A stretch of DNA of 37,680 nucleotides from Solirubrobacteraceae bacterium (lineage in GTDB: Bacteria > Actinomycetota > Thermoleophilia > Solirubrobacterales > Solirubrobacteraceae), in the NCBI GenBank assembly GCA_035938755.1, contig DASZGO010000084.1:1-37680 (forward strand), given 5' to 3'. Positions within the stretch are counted from its first letter, which is position 1. Every line of letters begins with the position of its first letter. The notes under the pieces are model-generated. The model had not been told where the DNA came from. It saw nothing but the letters and a program-made list of their open reading frames with translations, and did not search any database. A program made the translations under genes and the position numbers. Shown in pieces: positions 1,799 to 9,053 of this stretch.

Positions 1799-2865
1799 GC
1801 GCGGGCCACCGGAAAGCCCAGGCCGCGGACCAGGTTCTGCGCGCGCTGGGCCGCCTGGAGGCCGGAGATCCACAGCGCGATCACGCCCTCGCTCATGTCC
1901 GGGGCCGGGTACAGCGCCAGGTCCACGATGTTGACCCCGGCCCGGCCCAGCTCCAGCGCCAGCTGGGCCACCACCCCGGGTCGGTTGGGCACGGAGGCCC
2001 GGAGCTCGATCAGCGGCTCGGCGCCCAGGTGCGCTTCCAACAGGCGCCGGCGATCCGCGGCCGCGTCTTCGTTCCACCGGGTCAGCCAGTCGAAGTCTCC
2101 GCGGGCCAGCGCTTCCCGCACGCGCTCCAGCATCCGGCTGGCCTGGTCGACCGCCGTGATCAGAGCATCCGCATTGGAGATGTAGATATCGGTCCAGACC
2201 GAGCTGGGGGCGCCGGCCACCCGGGTGGCGTCGCGGAAGCTCGGCCCGGTGGCCGGCAGGCGCTCATCGCCGGCCGCCAACGTGGCCGCGGCCTGCGAGA
2301 CCAGGACGTTGGCCAGTACGTGTGGGAGGTGCGAGACCGTGGCCAGAATCGCGTCGTGGGTCTCGGGGTCGATGGCCGCCGGCCGCGCGCCCAACCCGCG
2401 CAGCAGCCGGTGCAGGCGCTCGTACAGCACGCCTGAGGTGACCTGGGTCGGAGTCAGATACCAGGTCGCGCCCTCGAACAGGTCGGCCCGGGCGTGCTCC
2501 ACGCCCGCGCTCTCGGCTCCGGCCAGGGGATGCCCGCCCACGAACCGCGGGTCGTCGTGACGGGCCACCACGGCTCGCTTGGTCGAGCCGACGTCGCTGA
2601 TCACGCAGTCGGCCGGCGCCGCGGCCAGCACGTCGCCCACCACGTCTCCAAGCGCACCCACAGGGACCGCCACCAACGCCGCCTCCGCGTCGGCCAGCGC
2701 CTCGGCCAGGCTGTGAGCGCCCTCGTCCAGCGCCCCCCGGGCCACCGCCTCAGCGCTGGCCCGGGGGTCGGCGTCGTATCCGGACACCGTCGCGCCCAGC
2801 CGCTCGCGGGCCGCCAGCGCGACCGAGCCGCCGATTAAGCCCACGCCGATTACCGCGAGCTTCAA
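1795..2865 (-). CDS. tyrA: Prephenate/arogenate dehydrogenase with C-terminal ACT domain
   Basis: Rossmann motif GVGLIGGS, SDVGSTK, GGHPLAGAE, SHLPH, FRDATRVA, then ACT-like VPNRPGVVAQLA...AGVNIVDL. TTG start overlaps the upstream TGA. Confidence 0.94.
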   Translation of the reverse strand: MKLAVIGVGLIGGSVALAARERLGATVSGYDADPRASAEAVARGALDEGAHSLAEALADAEAALVAVPVGALGDVVGDVLAAAPADCVISDVGSTKRAVVARHDDPRFVGGHPLAGAESAGVEHARADLFEGATWYLTPTQVTSGVLYERLHRLLRGLGARPAAIDPETHDAILATVSHLPHVLANVLVSQAAATLAAGDERLPATGPSFRDATRVAGAPSSVWTDIYISNADALITAVDQASRMLERVREALARGDFDWLTRWNEDAAADRRRLLEAHLGAEPLIELRASVPNRPGVVAQLALELGRAGVNIVDLALYPAPDMSEGVIALWISGLQAAQRAQNLVRGLGFPVARA

Positions 2866-3953
2866 GGGCCGCCGCTGCGACGGGCTCTCACTGCTTCAGC
2901 CAGGCCGTCGAGGACCTCGACCGTCCGCTCCCAATCCAGGCAGGCGTCAGTGATCGATTGCCCGTAGGTGAGCTCTCCCGGATGGGCGGGATCCATTTCC
3001 TGGCGCCCGAATACCAGAAACGACTCGAGCATCACCCCCACGATGGCGTGGTTGCCATCCGCGATCTGGCGCCCCACCTCGGCCGCCACAGCTGGCTGGC
3101 GAGCCGCGTCCTTGCCGCTGTTGTCGTGGCTGAAGTCGACCATCACCCGCTCCGGCAGCTCGGCCTGGCCCAGCAGCTCCAGCGCCCCGGACACGGCGCC
3201 CGGATCGAAGTTCGGAGCCTGGCGCCCGCCCCGCAGGATGATGTGGCAGTCGCGGTTGCCCTTGGTGTGGAGAATGGCCGGGGCGCCGTCGCGATCGATA
3301 CCCGCAAAAGCGTGGGGCACGGCGGCCGCCCGCACGGCGTCGACCGCCACGACCACGTTGCCGTCGGTCCGGTTCTTGAATCCCACCGGCATCGACAGGC
3401 CGGAGCCGAGCTGGCGATGGATCTGGCTCTCGGTGGTCCGGGCCCCGATCGCTCCCCAGGTCACGGCGTCCGAGATGTACTGCGGGGTGATCGGGTCCAG
3501 AAACTCGCAGCCCACCGGCAGCCGCAAACCGAGCACGTCCAGCAGCACGCGGCGGGCGATGTGCAGCCCCGCGTTCACGTCCCCCGAGCCGTCCAGATGC
3601 GGGTCGTTGATCAGGCCCTTCCACCCGGTGGTCGTCCTCGGCTTTTCGAAGTACACGCGCATCGTGATCAGCAGGTCGGCCTGTAGCCGCTCAGCCTCCC
3701 GGCTCAGGCGCTGCGCGTAGTCGAGCGTGGCGGCCACATCGTGCACGCTGCACGGTCCCACCACCACCAGCAGCCGGTCGTCGTGGCGGTCCAGCACGGC
3801 GTGGGTCTGGGCCCGGCCGCGCAGCACGACCTCGGTCTGGGCGTCACGCAGCGGCAGCTCGGATGTCAGCTGCTGCGGCGAGATCAGCGGCTCCAGCCGC
3901 TCGATCCGCTGGTCGCGGACGGCGTCCGGGGTGTTGACCGGCGAAGCCGCCAT
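2862..3953 (-). CDS. aroG: DAHP synthase, type I-alpha (E. coli AroF/AroG/AroH-like)
   Basis: VVGPCSVHD, MRVYFEKPRTTTGWKGLINDP, GAIGARTTESQIHRQLGSG, GFKNRTDG, VDFSHDNS, YGQSITDAC. Confidence 0.93.
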   Translation of the reverse strand: MAASPVNTPDAVRDQRIERLEPLISPQQLTSELPLRDAQTEVVLRGRAQTHAVLDRHDDRLLVVVGPCSVHDVAATLDYAQRLSREAERLQADLLITMRVYFEKPRTTTGWKGLINDPHLDGSGDVNAGLHIARRVLLDVLGLRLPVGCEFLDPITPQYISDAVTWGAIGARTTESQIHRQLGSGLSMPVGFKNRTDGNVVVAVDAVRAAAVPHAFAGIDRDGAPAILHTKGNRDCHIILRGGRQAPNFDPGAVSGALELLGQAELPERVMVDFSHDNSGKDAARQPAVAAEVGRQIADGNHAIVGVMLESFLVFGRQEMDPAHPGELTYGQSITDACLDWERTVEVLDGLAEAVRARRSGGP

Positions 3954-3956
3954 GGT

Positions 3957-4772
3957 CTAGAGGAGCACTTCCTTTCCGGCGAGAGCGGCGGCCGCCCGCA
4001 CCTGCTCGGCGTACTCCGAGAACCCCTCTGTGGGCAGCGCCTGCGGCCCATCGCACCTGGCGTCCTCAGGTCGTGGGTGCACCTCCACCATCAGGCCGTC
4101 GGCTCCCACGGCCGCCGCGGCCAGCGAGAGCGGGCCCACCAGCTCGCGCCGCCCCGCGGCGTGGCTGGGGTCGACCAGTACCGGCAGGTCCGTCAGCTCC
4201 TTGAGCACAGGGACCGCCATCAGGTCCAGGGTGAAGCGGTAGGCCCGCTCGAATGTCCGGATCCCCCGCTCGCACAGCATCACCGACCGGTTGCCCTCCT
4301 TCAGGACATACTCGGCCGACAGGAGCAATTCCTCCAGGGTGCTGGCCAGGCCGCGCTTGAGCAGCACGGGCACCTGGGCCCGCCCCACTTCGGCCAGCAA
4401 CGGGTAGTTCTGCATGTTCCGCGAGCCGATCTGCACCACGTCGGCCACTTCCAGCGTCACGTCGAGCTCCCGCGGGTCCATGACCTCGGTCACCACCGGC
4501 AGGCCGGTCAGCTCCTTGGCCTCACGCAGGATCTCCAGCGCCTGGCGTCCCAGTCCCTGGAACGCGTACGGCGAGGTGCGGGGCTTGAACGCCCCCCCGC
4601 GCAGCAGCGTGGCGCCCGCCTCGGCCACCGCGTGGGCGGTCTGGAGCGTCTGCTCGCGCGACTCGACCGCGCACGGACCAGCGATCAGAGCAAAGTGCCG
4701 GCCACCGACCTTCTGCCCGGCGATGTCGAGCACCGGGCGGTCGTCGGTGGCGGTGGGTTGCGTGGCGATCAT
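3957..4772 (-). CDS. aroF: DAHP synthase, type I-beta, catalytic barrel only (no N-terminal regulatory domain)
   Basis: [61 protein letters not shown]. Shine-Dalgarno-like AGAGAGGA lies 6 nt before the ATG. Confidence 0.92.
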
Positions 4773-4806
4773 TGCTAGTCCTCTCTGGTTCGAACTCTAG
4801 GGAAGG

Positions 4807-4822
4807 GCGGGCCACGGCCCGC
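4807..4822 (-). terminator. GC-rich hairpin in the aro operon leader (possible pause or attenuator hairpin)
   Basis: GCGGGCC-GT-GGCCCGC on the minus strand, followed by CCTTCCCT rather than a U-tract. Confidence 0.35.
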
Positions 4823-4902
4823 GGGGGGACGAGGTACGGCGCCCGTCGTGCTCTGGGGGGGCCAACCCGTTCAGGGCAGGCACAAGGGAGCAGGCAGAGC
4901 GC

Positions 4903-4974
4903 CTAGCTAAATCGCCAGCAATAGAGGCAGCCGCGGGGGGCGGTGTCCTGCGCGGTGCGACTGCCTTTGCTCAC
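4903..4974 (-). CDS. Putative leaderless leader peptide MSKGSRTAQDTAPRGCLYCWRFS (aromatic amino acid attenuator)
   Basis: GTG at 4974 lies 7 nt after a -10 box. The last codons are TAT TGC TGG CGA TTT AGC TAG (Y-C-W-R-F-S). The stop is 130 nt upstream of the first DAHP synthase gene. Confidence 0.72.
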   Translation of the reverse strand: MSKGSRTAQDTAPRGCLYCWRFS

Positions 4975-4981
4975 AACAGGG

Positions 4982-5010
4982 GTTGTACCACGGGGCGCGC
5001 GATCTGCCAA
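4982..5010 (-). promoter_or_regulatory. Sigma70/SigA-type promoter of the aro operon
   Basis: TTGGCA (5010-5005), 17-nt spacer, TACAAC (4987-4982), with an extended -10 TG. The predicted +1 is the G of the leader GTG. Confidence 0.72.
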
Positions 5011-5038
5011 GCGCTCGACCGCCGGTCGATCGAGATGT

Positions 5039-5067
5039 CGATTTTCCTTGCTATTCAAGGAAAATCG
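5039..5067. repeat. Perfect AT-rich inverted repeat (12-bp arms, 5-nt loop): operator, terminator or REP-like element
   Basis: CGATTTTCCTTG-CTATT-CAAGGAAAATCG, between the hisC stop and the aro promoter. Confidence 0.8.
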
Positions 5068-5088
5068 TCCACACGCCCCCCGCGCCAG

Positions 5089-5220
5089 CGTGGGGCGGCC
5101 GCGCCGTGGCGCCGTGGGGCGGCCGCCAGCGGTCCGCCGCCGCGCTCCCCGCGCCGCGCTCCGCCGCGCCGCGCCGCGGCCGCCGCGCTCCCGCCGCGCC
5201 GCGCTCCGCCGCACCGCCCA
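5089..5220. repeat. Low-complexity GC repeat tract
   Basis: CGTGGGGCGGCCGC twice (5089-5102, 5113-5126), then degenerate CCGCG/CCGCGCTCC units up to the hisC stop. Confidence 0.7.
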
Positions 5221-5221
5221 C

Positions 5222-6328
5222 TCAGCCGACGCCCAGCACCTCGCCCAGCGCGGCCACGAAACGCTCATTCTCGGTCTCGGTGCCCACGGTGACGCGCAGG
5301 CAGCCCTCGCGGCCCAGTGATGCCCCCGCCCGGACCAGCACGCTGCGCTCGGCCAGACCACCCACCACCTCGACCTCCGAGGGCCCGCCGCTCTCCTCGG
5401 GGTCTGGCAGCCGGACCCACACGAAGTTGGCGTCGGACTCCGCCACCCACAACCCTAGGCCCCGCACGCCCTCCTCCAGCGAGAGCCGACCCGCGATGGT
5501 GTGGGCCACCCGCTGCTCCACCTGGTCCTGATGGCGCAAGGCTTCGATCGCGGCCGCCTGGGTGGGGGCGCCGAGGTAGAACGGTTGGCGCACTTGGTCC
5601 ACCGCGGTCCGGAAGTCGGGTGACCCGCACAGCGCGTAGCCGGCGCGCATTCCGGCCAGCCCGTACACCTTGGAGAACGTCCGCAGCAGGACCAGGTTGG
5701 GGTGCTCTCGCAGCAGCCCCAGCGAAGCGAACGGATCCCCGATCCGCAGCGAGAACTCCACGTAGGCCTCGTCCAGGATCACACACACATGGCGCGGTAC
5801 CCGGTCCAGGAACTCGCGCACCCGGTCGAGCTCCAGCGCGGTGGAGGTGGGGTTGTTGGGGTTGCAGATCAGCACCAGCCGGGTCGCCACGTTCACCTCG
5901 GCGGCCATGGCCTCCAGGTCGTGGCGGTCCTCCGCATCCAGCGGCACCTCGATCGCCCGGGCGCCCGAAGCCGCCGACAGGTGGGGGTACACGCTGAACG
6001 CCGGCCAGGCGTACACCACTTCCGCGCCCGGCTCGAGCAGTGCCTCACCGGCGGCCAGCAGGATGTCGCACGAGCCGTTGCCCAGCGCGATCCGCTCCGG
6101 TCCCATCTCGTAGCGCTCGGCCAGCGCCCGGCGCAGCGGCGAGTACGACGGGTCCGGATACCGGTTGACCCGGCCTACCGCGTCCCGTGCCGCTTGCACG
6201 ACCTCAGGCAACGGCTCGAAGTAGGACTCGTTGGAGGCCAGCAGGGCCACGTCGCCGCCCAGGTCGTAGCCCGAAGCCACCGGGTAGACCGGGATGCGGC
6301 GGATCCGCTGGGCGAACTCGAGCGTCAC
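5222..6328 (-). CDS. hisC: Histidinol-phosphate / aromatic amino acid aminotransferase
   Basis: LASNES, NRYPD, GNGSCDIL, CNPNNPTS, LDEAYVEF and the PLP-lysine motif RTFSKVYGLAGMRAGY. Confidence 0.92.
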   Translation of the reverse strand: MTLEFAQRIRRIPVYPVASGYDLGGDVALLASNESYFEPLPEVVQAARDAVGRVNRYPDPSYSPLRRALAERYEMGPERIALGNGSCDILLAAGEALLEPGAEVVYAWPAFSVYPHLSAASGARAIEVPLDAEDRHDLEAMAAEVNVATRLVLICNPNNPTSTALELDRVREFLDRVPRHVCVILDEAYVEFSLRIGDPFASLGLLREHPNLVLLRTFSKVYGLAGMRAGYALCGSPDFRTAVDQVRQPFYLGAPTQAAAIEALRHQDQVEQRVAHTIAGRLSLEEGVRGLGLWVAESDANFVWVRLPDPEESGGPSEVEVVGGLAERSVLVRAGASLGREGCLRVTVGTETENERFVAALGEVLGVG

Positions 6329-6334
6329 TGGGGC

Positions 6335-6700
6335 CTATTGTGCCGCGTCGAGATCGCTGCGCAGCGCGCGCGCCTCGCCCAGGTAGACGTGCCGGGGCTC
6401 GTGGTCCTCGGGGGCGTAGTAGTGGACGAGCACCCGGATCACCTGGGGCATCGAGCCTGGCACCGGGACCTCGCGGGCGCACAGCAGCGGCACACGGTCC
6501 AGGCCCATCCGGCGGGCCGCCACGGCCGGGAACTCGGCGTCCAGGTCGTCGGTCAGGGTGAAGATGCAGCTCACGAACGCACTCGCCTCGAGCTGGTTGC
6601 GCTCCATCAGCTCGTGCATCAGCTCGTTGGTGGCGGACAGGATGGCCTCGGCCTCGTTGGCCCCCGCGCTGTTGGCGCCCCGAAGCGCAAAGAGCCGCAT
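6335..6700 (-). CDS. aroH: Chorismate mutase, AroH class
   Basis: ALRGAN, FTLTDDLDAEFPAVAAR, VPLLCAREVPVPGSMPQVIRVL, HVYLGEARALRSDL. Confidence 0.95.
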   Translation of the reverse strand: MRLFALRGANSAGANEAEAILSATNELMHELMERNQLEASAFVSCIFTLTDDLDAEFPAVAARRMGLDRVPLLCAREVPVPGSMPQVIRVLVHYYAPEDHEPRHVYLGEARALRSDLDAAQ

Positions 6701-6707
6701 TGCAGCG

Positions 6708-6713
6708 ATTCTA
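6708..6713 (-). promoter_or_regulatory. -10 element for a leaderless aroH-hisC transcript
   Basis: TAGAAT lies 7 nt before the aroH ATG, with no Shine-Dalgarno. Its TAG is also the stop codon of the upstream gene. Confidence 0.6.
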
Positions 6714-8999
6714 GGAGGCCGTCGCCGGCACGTTGAGGCACGGCGGACCTACGATTCCGGACAGGATCGAGGAGCCGGGCCCGCGGGCCAGGGGCGCGAA
6801 CGCCGGCTCGACTAGGGTCGGGCCGTCCAGCTGGGCTCCGGGCGAGCCCTGCAGGCTGAGCAGGGTGGTGCCCGGAGCGACCCTGATCGGGATCTGCACC
6901 CTTCCCCCGCGGGGCACTGCCGGGACTCCGCCCACGACCACGGTCTGCGGAGACGACGCAGCGAGCGTGGCGGGCCGGAACGCCGGGCTGGGATTGTCGA
7001 TCGTGAGCTGTCCCCGAGCGCAACTCAGGCGCAGCGGCGTCAGCACGGCGGTCCGCAGGGCCGCCAGCTGAGGCGCCGACAGCCTGTTCTGGAGACGCCG
7101 GGCCAGCGGCCGCAGGTCATAGAACAGCAGGTCACCGAACGGACTGGGGAACGGAGGTTCGCCCACCACGTCGCGCAGCGCGCGGGTCAGCTCGAGCTGG
7201 TCGGGATAGCCCCAGAGGTTGACCACCAGCCCCTGAAATCCGGCGGCCGCGGCGCCGGTGACCGCCAGGCCGACCGGCTTGGCCGCCAGCTGCGACTGCC
7301 AGTCCACTCGCCGCCCCTTCATGGCGCCGTAGCTGAAGCGCAGCGCGCTGGCGTTGATGAACCCCCGGGCCTGGTCGTATTCGAGGCTCACGGCCGGGGC
7401 GTACGGCACGGTTTGGCCCGGCTCGCGGTAGGGCTGATAGCCCTCGGGAAACGGCACGTAGGGCAGCTCCAGGACCGAGGCTCCGCGGGGCAGGACGGTC
7501 TGCACGTTGGCGAAGAACACCTGGTCGGAGTGGTAGACCACGGCGTCGTCGTGATAGGGCACCAGGCCGAACGGGTTGGTCTGGTCGATCGCCCCGAAGG
7601 CCAGCACGCCGGCCGCGATCAGTGCGAAGGCGACCGTTCGCCGGCCAGGTGAGATACGCCTGCGCAGCGCGTCCAGCAGCAGCCCGCTGGCCAACAGCGA
7701 GAAGAACGCGATCAGCACCGATATCCGGTTCCAGGCGCGGATGTCGGCGGTTACGAACACCCGGACGAGGCTCGAGACCCCGCCGGTCACACCCACGGCC
7801 AGGCATACCCCCACGCCCGCGGCGGCGTACCCGTAGATCGGGCGGCGGCGCACCAGCAGGGGAACGCCTACCAGCGCCCCCAGCGCGACCACGCCGAGCC
7901 AGATGAAGCCCACGTCGCCCACCAGCCCCATCGCCTCGTGACACTGTTCGCAGTAGGTCTGACGGGGCGTGATGGCGTCGTAGCGACGGGTCAGACTGCG
8001 CAGCGGCTTTATCCGGTCATCCCGGGAGGGCAGGATCAGATTGGACACCGACAGCGCCAGGTCGTCGCCCGCGCTGGCCGCCCGGGAGACCACGGCATTG
8101 CCGCCATGGTGGGCCTGGTAGGAGATCGTTGGCGCCAGGTTGAGCGTGAGCACCGCGGCGATCAGGATCCAAGCCGCCGCGGCTGAGACGACAGCTCGCC
8201 GCGACCGCCGGGCCAGCAGCGCGATCAGCACCGCGGCGGCAACGAGGGTGAGCGAAAACACCGCGTAGTAGAGCCCGCCCGAGGCGATCACGGCGCACAG
8301 GACGACGGTCTCCACAGTTCGCCGGCTCACCCAGACCAGCGGTCCGCGGGCCGGCGGTCCGCGGCGCTCGAACAGCGCCTGCCCGCGGAGAATCGTCACG
8401 AACAGGTACGCGGCCAGCGGCAGCGCGTAGTAGGCCGACAGGAACAGGTGACCGTCGCCGCGGAACAGGTGGTAAGGCAGCAGCGCGAACAGCACCGCAC
8501 ACACCACCGCGGCGCTCCGGGAGGCACCCAGCCGGCGCGTGGCCCAGAACGCGGCCAGCGCGTCCAGCGGGTAGGTCAGCAGATAGAACAGATTGAGCAC
8601 CACCGCCGGTTTGGCCACCAGCGTCAAGCCCCTGATGATCAGGAAGTTCAGGTTGTCGGCCGACTGGGGGTAGTCGAACAGCTGCTGTCCAAACGGCGCC
8701 CCCAGGCTGTGGTTGGTCGCGAACCAGCCATGGGCGGCGATCGCCTTGATCAGCGACAGGTAGAACAGCGTGTCGTCGCGCGAGGAGTAGCGGAACGGAA
8801 CTCCCAGATCCGCCCGCCAGAGCCGGAGCGCCCACGCGGCCAGGGCGAGCGACAGCAGCACCGCCCCGGCGCCGGCCACGACGTCGCTGCGCAGCCAGGT
8901 GCGCGGACCACCGCGGCGACGGCGGCGCAGTGCCCGACCCGGCCGGCGGCCGACCGCTGACTCGTCAAGCTCGCCTACGTCCAGGGACGGGACGCTCAC
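6711..8999 (-). CDS. Large polytopic membrane protein, probable GT-C-fold (lipid-linked sugar) transferase with an extracytoplasmic C-terminal domain
   Basis: Many hydrophobic helices. Acidic RDD in the first external loop; LPYHLFRGDGHLFLSAYY, IRAWNRISV, LPYVPFPE, LRFSYGAMKGR. The start is placed at GTG 8999 because TATGAT (9015-9010) looks like a -10 box; ATG 9014 is an alternative. Confidence 0.6.
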   Translation of the reverse strand: MSVPSLDVGELDESAVGRRPGRALRRRRRGGPRTWLRSDVVAGAGAVLLSLALAAWALRLWRADLGVPFRYSSRDDTLFYLSLIKAIAAHGWFATNHSLGAPFGQQLFDYPQSADNLNFLIIRGLTLVAKPAVVLNLFYLLTYPLDALAAFWATRRLGASRSAAVVCAVLFALLPYHLFRGDGHLFLSAYYALPLAAYLFVTILRGQALFERRGPPARGPLVWVSRRTVETVVLCAVIASGGLYYAVFSLTLVAAAVLIALLARRSRRAVVSAAAAWILIAAVLTLNLAPTISYQAHHGGNAVVSRAASAGDDLALSVSNLILPSRDDRIKPLRSLTRRYDAITPRQTYCEQCHEAMGLVGDVGFIWLGVVALGALVGVPLLVRRRPIYGYAAAGVGVCLAVGVTGGVSSLVRVFVTADIRAWNRISVLIAFFSLLASGLLLDALRRRISPGRRTVAFALIAAGVLAFGAIDQTNPFGLVPYHDDAVVYHSDQVFFANVQTVLPRGASVLELPYVPFPEGYQPYREPGQTVPYAPAVSLEYDQARGFINASALRFSYGAMKGRRVDWQSQLAAKPVGLAVTGAAAAGFQGLVVNLWGYPDQLELTRALRDVVGEPPFPSPFGDLLFYDLRPLARRLQNRLSAPQLAALRTAVLTPLRLSCARGQLTIDNPSPAFRPATLAASSPQTVVVGGVPAVPRGGRVQIPIRVAPGTTLLSLQGSPGAQLDGPTLVEPAFAPLARGPGSSILSGIVGPPCLNVPATAS

Positions 9000-9053
9000 A
9001 GCGTCGCCGATCATATGTCGAGCCGCCGCACAGCCTCCGCGCCAGGCCGAGAG

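Follow-up and report, generated by a model that had tools for sequence, protein, structure and literature searches.

Upstream of the DAHP-synthase operon of a Solirubrobacterales genome lies a short open reading frame that ends in tyrosine, tryptophan and phenylalanine codons. It raises the question of whether ribosomes translating this frame report the supply of the three amino acids and, if so, by which route the signal reaches the synthase. In the same phylum the Phe-Tyr-Phe leader aroR precedes aroF in Corynebacterium glutamicum (PMC4046766; PMC11802643; PMC7356990; PMC3890552). AroR is reported to respond to Phe and not to Tyr, despite its Tyr codon (PMC11802643), and has been described both as transcriptional (PMC11802643) and as translational control (PMC7356990). 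The first-pass annotation of the locus knew of no described leader of this form in the lineage; this holds for Solirubrobacterales, for which we found none, but for the phylum it has to be narrowed in view of aroR-aroF. No report of leader-peptide control or attenuation in Solirubrobacterales or Thermoleophilia was found in the literature searched, outside which most subscription papers lay.

In this work we have analyzed the leader in a window of 37,680 nt, the whole stretch of DNA examined here, and in its homologues. The results extend amino-acid leader control to Solirubrobacterales, abundant soil bacteria, and raise the question of how attenuation proceeds in bacteria with few U-tract terminators and an apparently motor-less Rho, as well as how the lineage ends its transcripts. 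The first-pass annotation proposed no output mechanism, and both a hairpin at the stop codon and pairing with the initiation region had escaped it.

Leader locus, promoter and neighbouring genes

All features are located on the minus strand. The gene order starts with an aroH-type chorismate mutase gene (6335-6700) and a hisC-family aminotransferase gene (5222-6328), which lies upstream of the leader promoter and is syntenic in relatives. The leader is followed by the genes for DAHP synthase Ibeta (3957-4772, 271 aa) and Ialpha (2862-3953), tyrA encoding prephenate dehydrogenase (1795-2865), aroA (494-2077 as the listed ORF, with the true start about 95 codons in) and cmk (3-497), truncated by the window end. 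The predicted promoter, supported by its sequence and by recurrence in homologues, comprises the -35 hexamer TTGGCA (5010-5005), a 17-nt spacer and TACAAC (4987-4982), which together with the preceding TG-G forms an extended -10 box (TGGTACAAC, 4982-4990) lacking the final T, as in most homologues. Seven nucleotides after the box a GTG at 4974 opens a uORF of 23 codons (VSKGSRTAQDTAPRGCLYCWRFS), closed by TAG at 4905-4903 (4903-4974 with the stop). Its sole aromatic residues, Tyr18 (TAT), Trp20 and Phe22 (TTT), belong to the candidate control codons Tyr(TAT)-Cys-Trp-Arg(CGA)-Phe(TTT) at 4909-4923, and the uORF is the 3′ end of a 152-codon ORF (4903-5361). Promoter, spacing, frame, aromatic residues, burial within the longer ORF and the order of the genes downstream are thus as the first-pass annotation had given them. 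Its remark that TAT and TTT are unexpected in such GC-rich DNA agrees with codon use in our own gene calls for the genome, in which TAT makes up 15% of Tyr codons and TTT 12% of Phe codons.

The leader promoter is absent from the output of the sigma-70 scan of the window because its -10 box lacks the final T. Among 192 homologous leaders (the set is defined below) the box TGnTAnAA[ACG] is present in 138; selection was by the -10 box alone, and their -35 position has T in 87% and G in 80%. Related -10 boxes were found in 31 of the remaining 54, most of which retain the final T and differ in the first TA. In the leader promoters of the whole order, the extended -10 is nearly always off consensus at one end, the final T being lost or the first TA changed, which suggests, as far as sequence can tell, a tuned weak promoter strength. 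A Shine-Dalgarno-like word precedes the uORF start in only 6 of 132 leaders. The earlier description of the uORF as leaderless suits the 7-nt gap in the window, but the distance from the box of the predicted promoter to the start is 5-8 nt in only 52 of 136 homologues and 9-15 nt in 84.

DAHP synthase's Shine-Dalgarno sequence (AGAGAGGA, 4779-4786) was recognized from the sequence and as a conserved block in alignment A1. A second TAnnnT box, TAGAGT (4794-4799), is a possible internal promoter or pairing partner; such a box occurs 24-31 nt before the DAHP-synthase start in 76 of 147 homologues as against 31 (maximum 43) in shuffles. The window Ibeta lacks the N-terminal ferredoxin-like regulatory domain: PF18152 was found in the relative L003 and not in the window protein. 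A short Ibeta is encoded in 16 of 99 Ibeta-first loci, and in 48 loci Ibeta is gone and Ialpha stands next to the leader, often with Ibeta-like first codons retained. One 370-nt contig of a soil metatranscriptome corresponds to 4597-4966 with 2 differences and runs through the hairpin into the gene; the public RNA runs consist of contigs only, which give no start, strand or level and possibly derive from DNA. Rfam yielded no family match for the leader at E 0.05 (best E 0.12).

Several features of the surrounding DNA were recorded as well. In L006 and L007 the hisC stop and the uORF start overlap, which places the promoter within hisC and could allow the uORF to be coupled to hisC translation as well. 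Immediately upstream of the window promoter there is an AT-rich palindrome (5030-5077) with at least 4 similar copies on other contigs, and several relatives carry unrelated palindromes at the matching place. A low-complexity GC repeat tract (5090-5221) directly follows the hisC stop, and in a close relative (run X6) 151 different letters replace 4993-5216. Further upstream, a 767-aa probable membrane protein (6711-9014), with no match in NCBIfam or Pfam, is encoded beside two GT87 glycosyltransferases.

A conserved reading frame with aromatic codons

When loci were retrieved by DAHP-synthase similarity alone, the tail Trp-Arg-Phe-X-stop was present in 29 of 30, and in the 30th the contig ends 156 nt upstream. 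Among 14 further operon-type loci 8 had the tail, the 6 without it belonging to families f5 and f6, and it was absent from 6 DAHP-synthase copies in other contexts. A 22-nt motif, searched with two mismatches allowed, was found in 221 of 251 Solirubrobacterales genomes (f1 68/75, f2 9/10, f3 72/75, f4 68/75, f5 3/14, f6 0/1) with 2 control matches in total; the three f5 matches look like chance. All matches named below phylum or class belong to Solirubrobacterales, its families or Thermoleophilia. A pattern tolerant of synonymous changes matched in 22 of 239 sister-order genomes, with no match of the exact motif type, and none of the five operon queries was present in the 19 loci retrieved. 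The working set of 192 leaders was obtained from 218 motif loci by removing 22 duplicates, 2 loci inside unrelated genes and 2 with short flanks; two of its rows (L016, L025) and one entry in the tallies (G487) belong to genomes that are flagged unpublished, and none of the conclusions rests on these. The first downstream match among the five queries is DAHP synthase in 162 of the 192, and the other 30 have at most 483 nt of downstream sequence and no query match. An aromatic-codon uORF before DAHP synthase is conserved across Solirubrobacterales.

The uORF bears the marks of a translated frame. Of the 138 boxed leaders, 2 are without a start; in 132 of the other 136 the first ATG or GTG 5-16 nt after the box is in frame with the tail, giving uORFs of 21-44 codons, and with the tail recurring in the loci found by similarity this bears out the earlier idea that a short ORF with aromatic codons is kept upstream of DAHP synthase. 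Over the stretch of eight codons that closes with the Trp position, just ahead of Arg, 700 of 1536 positions (46%) are aromatic, as compared with 97 and 32 (6% and 2%) when the same eight codons are read in the other two frames. A stop within 18 codons upstream interrupts the uORF frame in 1 of 192 leaders versus 14 and 12 for the other frames. Tyr, Phe and Trp interchange freely at the positions outside the fixed Arg-Phe. The earlier proposal that one leader integrates all three end products agrees with the presence of Tyr, Trp and Phe together in 189 of 192 homologues, but it is weakened by the replacement of the Trp beside Arg with Pro, Ser, Cys or Arg in 11 of 192 and by AroR, which is reported to answer Phe and not Tyr (PMC11802643). 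The rare Tyr codon is enriched, the ratio TAT:TAC being 155:171 in the leaders and 15:85 genome-wide.

The end of the frame, CGA-TTT-NNN-TAG, is fixed to a degree that amino acid identity would not require. CGA-TTT is unchanged in 192 of 192 leaders, and only 20 of 1988 Arg-Phe pairs in our gene calls for this genome are encoded in this way. Since an exact pattern had served to retrieve 120 of the 192 loci, the counts free of circularity are those for protein-anchored leaders (37 of 37) and for the mismatch-tolerant matches listed (141 of 150, out of 230 in all); the 9 exceptions comprise 2 matches in other genes, 4 second matches in motif-bearing genomes and 3 in f5. No synonymous change was found in the tail; L236 and L237, considered as synonymous variants, were rejected since they are located within unrelated genes. 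The fourth codon, after Phe, may be Ser, Ile, Thr, Arg, Leu or Lys. Arg-Phe stands at one distance from the stop in 192 of 192, and the stop is TAG in 191 of 192. The single leader with TAG changed to CAG, L238 (G166), has an ORF extended by eight codons into the hairpin. No Arg-UCG tRNA was present among the 41 anticodons found in a single-contig relative, in whose list two expected tRNAs are also missing; CGA is likely to be read by wobble. The leader peptide very probably senses amino-acid supply through the ribosome.

The stop-codon hairpin and predicted pairing with the DAHP-synthase start

A hairpin (4838-4903) begins at the G of the stop codon, with the 5′ arm at 4903-4894, the 3′ arm at 4847-4838 and a stem of 9-10 bp. 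The best partner, chosen for pairing, matches 8-10 of 10 positions in 192 of 192 leaders. Covariation is seen at motif positions 19 and 20, which are paired in 187 and 186 of 192, above the shuffled means of 169 and 155 and the maxima of 179 and 169. For a ribosome with CGA in its P site and UUU in its A site, the stem begins at +12; hairpins at the mRNA entry site can pause ribosomes. No U tract follows the hairpin in any of the 192 leaders (at most 4 T in 8 nt), and an intrinsic terminator, understood as a hairpin with a U tract, was not found in the leader. The stop hairpin alone was predicted by RNAalifold for a 31-sequence alignment; neither a conserved alternative partner for its 3′ arm nor a conserved, mutually exclusive antiterminator/terminator pair was found, and the z-score of the whole-leader fold is -0.84. 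Two simpler structures were discarded: release of the 3′ arm onto the Shine-Dalgarno, whose accessibility does not change on masking of the 5′ arm (0.52 vs 0.49 unpaired, 142 leaders), and a short local hairpin over the tail, which by eye is not preserved in variants.

Folding of whole leaders pairs the aromatic codons with the region before the DAHP-synthase start codon at a mean probability of 0.4-0.5 (142 leaders). The duplex between the tail and its cognate initiation region is predicted at -19.3 kcal/mol as against -16.5 kcal/mol for distant non-cognate pairs. The cognate duplex is the better one in 102 of 147 leaders (an upstream control segment in 68 of 147), and in 99 of 147 pairing is better for the real codons than for their synonymous recodings on average. 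In four draws of 31-34 divergent representatives each, de-duplicated by sequence and not by tree, cognate pairing exceeded all 5000 permutations every time, and the control segment gave p of 0.87, 0.29, 0.12 and 0.025. Perfect 12-bp helices with both strands changed occur in different lineages (L028, L251, L223, L245). The specificity has bounds: aromatic tails pair equally strongly with the initiation regions of unrelated genes (-19.6 vs -18.4), and the register of the helix is not fixed, a Trp-anchored extension of at least 3 bp being present in 30 of 140 leaders (permuted mean 16.5, maximum 28). In a 31-sequence alignment 81% of cells in the long-range helix pair, but its covariation does not beat shuffles, 41-179 of 500 being as high. 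The complementarity of the control codons to their own downstream initiation region is statistical and not universal.

With a ribosome-sized mask on the aromatic codons, 24 of 34 representatives needed over 1 kcal less to open the initiation region (median saving 2.0), whereas 14 of 34 (0.4) did so with a mask far upstream and 15 of 34 (0.1) with one at the stop. About 10 of the 34 showed no effect of masking or the reverse, and in an earlier run with 124 of 147 leaders the median gain was only 0.8 kcal. In the window a 16-bp helix is predicted between the tail and a partner at 4758-4777, which flanks and partly covers the DAHP-synthase start codon; the tail pairs with codons 1-5 and the spacer (4770-4758 with 4910-4921, with one bulge, and 4777-4774 with 4904-4907), and the core pair probabilities are 0.9-1.0 in three fold lengths. 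Opening of the initiation region costs 15.2 kcal when the leader is free, 8.6-9.0 kcal when Tyr, Trp or Phe is masked and 16.5 kcal in the control; a mask at the stop codon also opens it (10.0 kcal). The window tail is no better than non-cognate ones if the test stops at AUG (-16.3 vs -18.5).

Two further uses of the tail were rejected. The idea that CGAUU is invariant owing to pairing with the first DAHP-synthase codons was dropped because the partner is also present in leader-less copies; it occurs in 82 of 83 long forms and only 21 of 64 short or Ialpha-first forms, and CGA-TTT is kept in the latter. Frameshift or read-through coupling into DAHP synthase was set aside since the frame relation, judged by eye, varies between loci.

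Output of the leader

On balance we lean towards translational attenuation of the Ms5788A/LEU-element type, acting on DAHP-synthase initiation, as the best reading of these data. The predicted hairpin would bring the uORF tail beside the initiation region, and the two would form a closing helix, over the Shine-Dalgarno flank in most homologues and over the first codons in the window. With enough charged tRNA the ribosome would finish the uORF and leave, the helix would re-form and initiation would stay low. With Tyr-, Trp- or Phe-tRNA in short supply the ribosome would remain on the tail, block the helix and let DAHP synthase be translated, and the downstream genes may follow through coupling or mRNA protection. 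Perhaps, though this part is weaker, the invariant CGA-UUU, both codons of which are probably wobble-read, and the hairpin at +12 from the P-site codon lengthen the pause. Against this model speak the invariance of CGA-UUU, for which the long-range helix does not account, and the second TAnnnT box, which in about half of the homologues could bypass the leader.

Known systems provide precedents for its parts. In Ms5788A, a polycysteine leaderless sORF of Mycobacterium smegmatis, reporters have established translational attenuation by pairing of control codons with the Shine-Dalgarno (bioRxiv 10.1101/834739). It resembles the present leader in its GUG start, in the predicted pairing of its 3′-terminal control codons with the initiation region downstream and in a structured spacer of about 100 nt, but it relies on a run of a single amino acid and an exceptionally stable duplex and is proven by reporters, whereas here three amino acids are interspersed and the helix is weaker, variable in register and predicted only. 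In the LEU element, predicted upstream of leuA in Actinobacteria (Seliverstov 2005, PMC1262725), a base stem of control codons and Shine-Dalgarno likewise closes an inner structured domain without a terminator; it differs in its leucine codons and conserved pseudoknot. The same source reports no RNA element for Phe or Tyr operons, has a genome list without Solirubrobacterales, and mentions codon mutations in S. coelicolor that behaved unlike classical attenuation, which is a caution for the model proposed here. If the model is true, the leader represents, with three amino acids, a mechanism that has so far been shown for cysteine and predicted for leucine. The aroR-aroF pair of C. glutamicum shares a short aromatic-codon uORF before DAHP synthase in an actinobacterium, with stalling expected to raise expression. 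The Solirubrobacterales leader adds Trp and the fixed CGA-TTT-NNN-TAG tail, has no U-tract terminator and belongs to a lineage without a motor-competent Rho; the likeness is drawn from descriptions. The leaders trpL and pheL (PMC11802643) and ilvB1 of M. tuberculosis (PMC13236596) also have control codons a few positions ahead of the stop and a hairpin with one arm placed so that a terminating ribosome would mask it, but they combine hairpin, U tract and competing antiterminator, neither of the last two being found here. More than 200 natural variants, and a dicodon-hairpin geometry whose invariance is unexplained, are available for work on this leader.

The way in which the order ends transcripts bears on the choice between translational and transcriptional output. 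None of 61 genomes of the order reached the TIGR00767 cut-off for Rho (509 bits), the scores of their single Rho-like protein being 56-288 bits (rows L257-L277, compared with L278-L283). The cut-off was passed in 27 genomes of three sister families, and the sister families f7 and f9 gave almost no Rho match. In family f1 this protein retains the RNA-binding domain together with Walker A/B-like motifs, but its catalytic segment is altered and two loop segments are missing; from the roles of such motifs we take the affected parts to be the catalytic and motor loop segments. In this genome the C-terminal part of the protein lies on a contig end (G000:C213). Conexibacter woesei and Baekduia soli are given as the sole Actinomycetota without functional Rho in the set of Moreira and colleagues (PMC11347177). 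U-tract terminators are rare in our gene calls for this genome, with 2 at 229 convergent and 4 at 234 widely spaced gene ends. A Rho without motor loops and the scarcity of such terminators make classical or Rho-dependent attenuation unlikely, judged from these genomes, and Rho-dependent termination, our first reading, was dropped because of the degenerate Rho. An apparent co-absence of Rho and leader in f5 (0/7) vanished at a laxer threshold, at which 3 of 4 had a very divergent copy; f6 at that threshold has such a copy and no leader.

One might go further and suppose that in the whole order, with its motor-less Rho and almost no U-tract terminators, amino-acid feedback is purely translational, a single uORF summing Tyr, Trp and Phe while CGA-UUU and the entrance hairpin act as a built-in pause that sets the opening time of DAHP synthase. 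This extension is tentative and we consider it rather doubtful.

Ribosome-controlled transcription attenuation with a non-standard output is an unlikely rival of translational attenuation. The hairpin would act as an antiterminator or a U-less terminator, or the motor-less Rho would stop RNA polymerase on the C-rich leader. The position of the 5′ arm at the stop codon suits it, as a terminating ribosome would melt the hairpin and one on the upstream codons would not; so do the frequency of U-less hairpins at this genome's gene ends (109 of 229 vs 71 in one shuffle), the RNA-binding domain retained in Rho and the description of AroR as transcriptional (PMC11802643). The leader is indeed rich in C: uORFs and loops have more C than G in 97% and 88% of cases, as compared with 20-32% for the flanking coding stretches, but this may only mirror complementarity to the purine-rich initiation region. 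The missing U tract, the 3′ arm without a conserved alternative partner and the Rho scores (56-288 bits vs 509) with lost loop segments weigh against it.

Control of mRNA stability is less probable still. The invariant AU-rich stretch before the hairpin, which presumably fits an RNase E preference, would serve as an endonuclease site that a stalled ribosome shields and that is cleaved once the uORF is cleared. Such a site would account for the invariance of CGA-TTT at the nucleotide level despite its 1% usage and for the clustering of aromatic codons within a footprint of the stretch, and each of 5 genomes tested encodes members of the RNase E/G, J and Y families, one RNase Y being split. It fits poorly with the variable fourth codon, whose first base is changed from A to C in 6 of 192, and leaves the cognate pairing with the initiation region unexplained.

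We find it just as improbable that the peptide itself arrests the ribosome, its aromatic-rich Arg-Phe-X-stop end responding to a free aromatic amino acid or pathway intermediate. TnaC and SpeFL stall ribosomes on such small molecules, and Arg, Phe and TAG fixed at one distance (192, 192 and 191 of 192) would fit; yet selection on the peptide would permit synonymous codons, of which none was found, and the interchange of Tyr, Phe and Trp elsewhere, as in control codons, and the enrichment of rare TAT (155 TAT to 171 TAC) point away from it. Very improbable is a translated uORF that is no starvation sensor, with the second promoter-like box driving the operon and the core serving as a protein-binding site on DNA or RNA, for despite the core's nucleotide-level invariance and the TAnnnT box in 76 of 147 homologues such a site would neither stay in phase with a start codon that lies 21-44 codons upstream (132 of 136) nor enrich aromatic codons in one frame only, and the box is missing in about half.

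Translational attenuation may not be confined to the aromatic operon in these bacteria. No trpE leader was found in 5 of 5 genomes, trpE overlapping or abutting the upstream gene in each. A crude genome scan for promoter-linked uORFs returned this leader and two unconvincing matches and missed the leader of leuA. The latter, a uORF with a run of Leu codons and no Rfam match, is present in 5 of 5 genomes from four families (G000:C1:2352-2478; L324-L328). In these five, including the present genome, the Leu codons are predicted to fold onto a purine tract at or just before the Shine-Dalgarno, which is the design of the LEU element.
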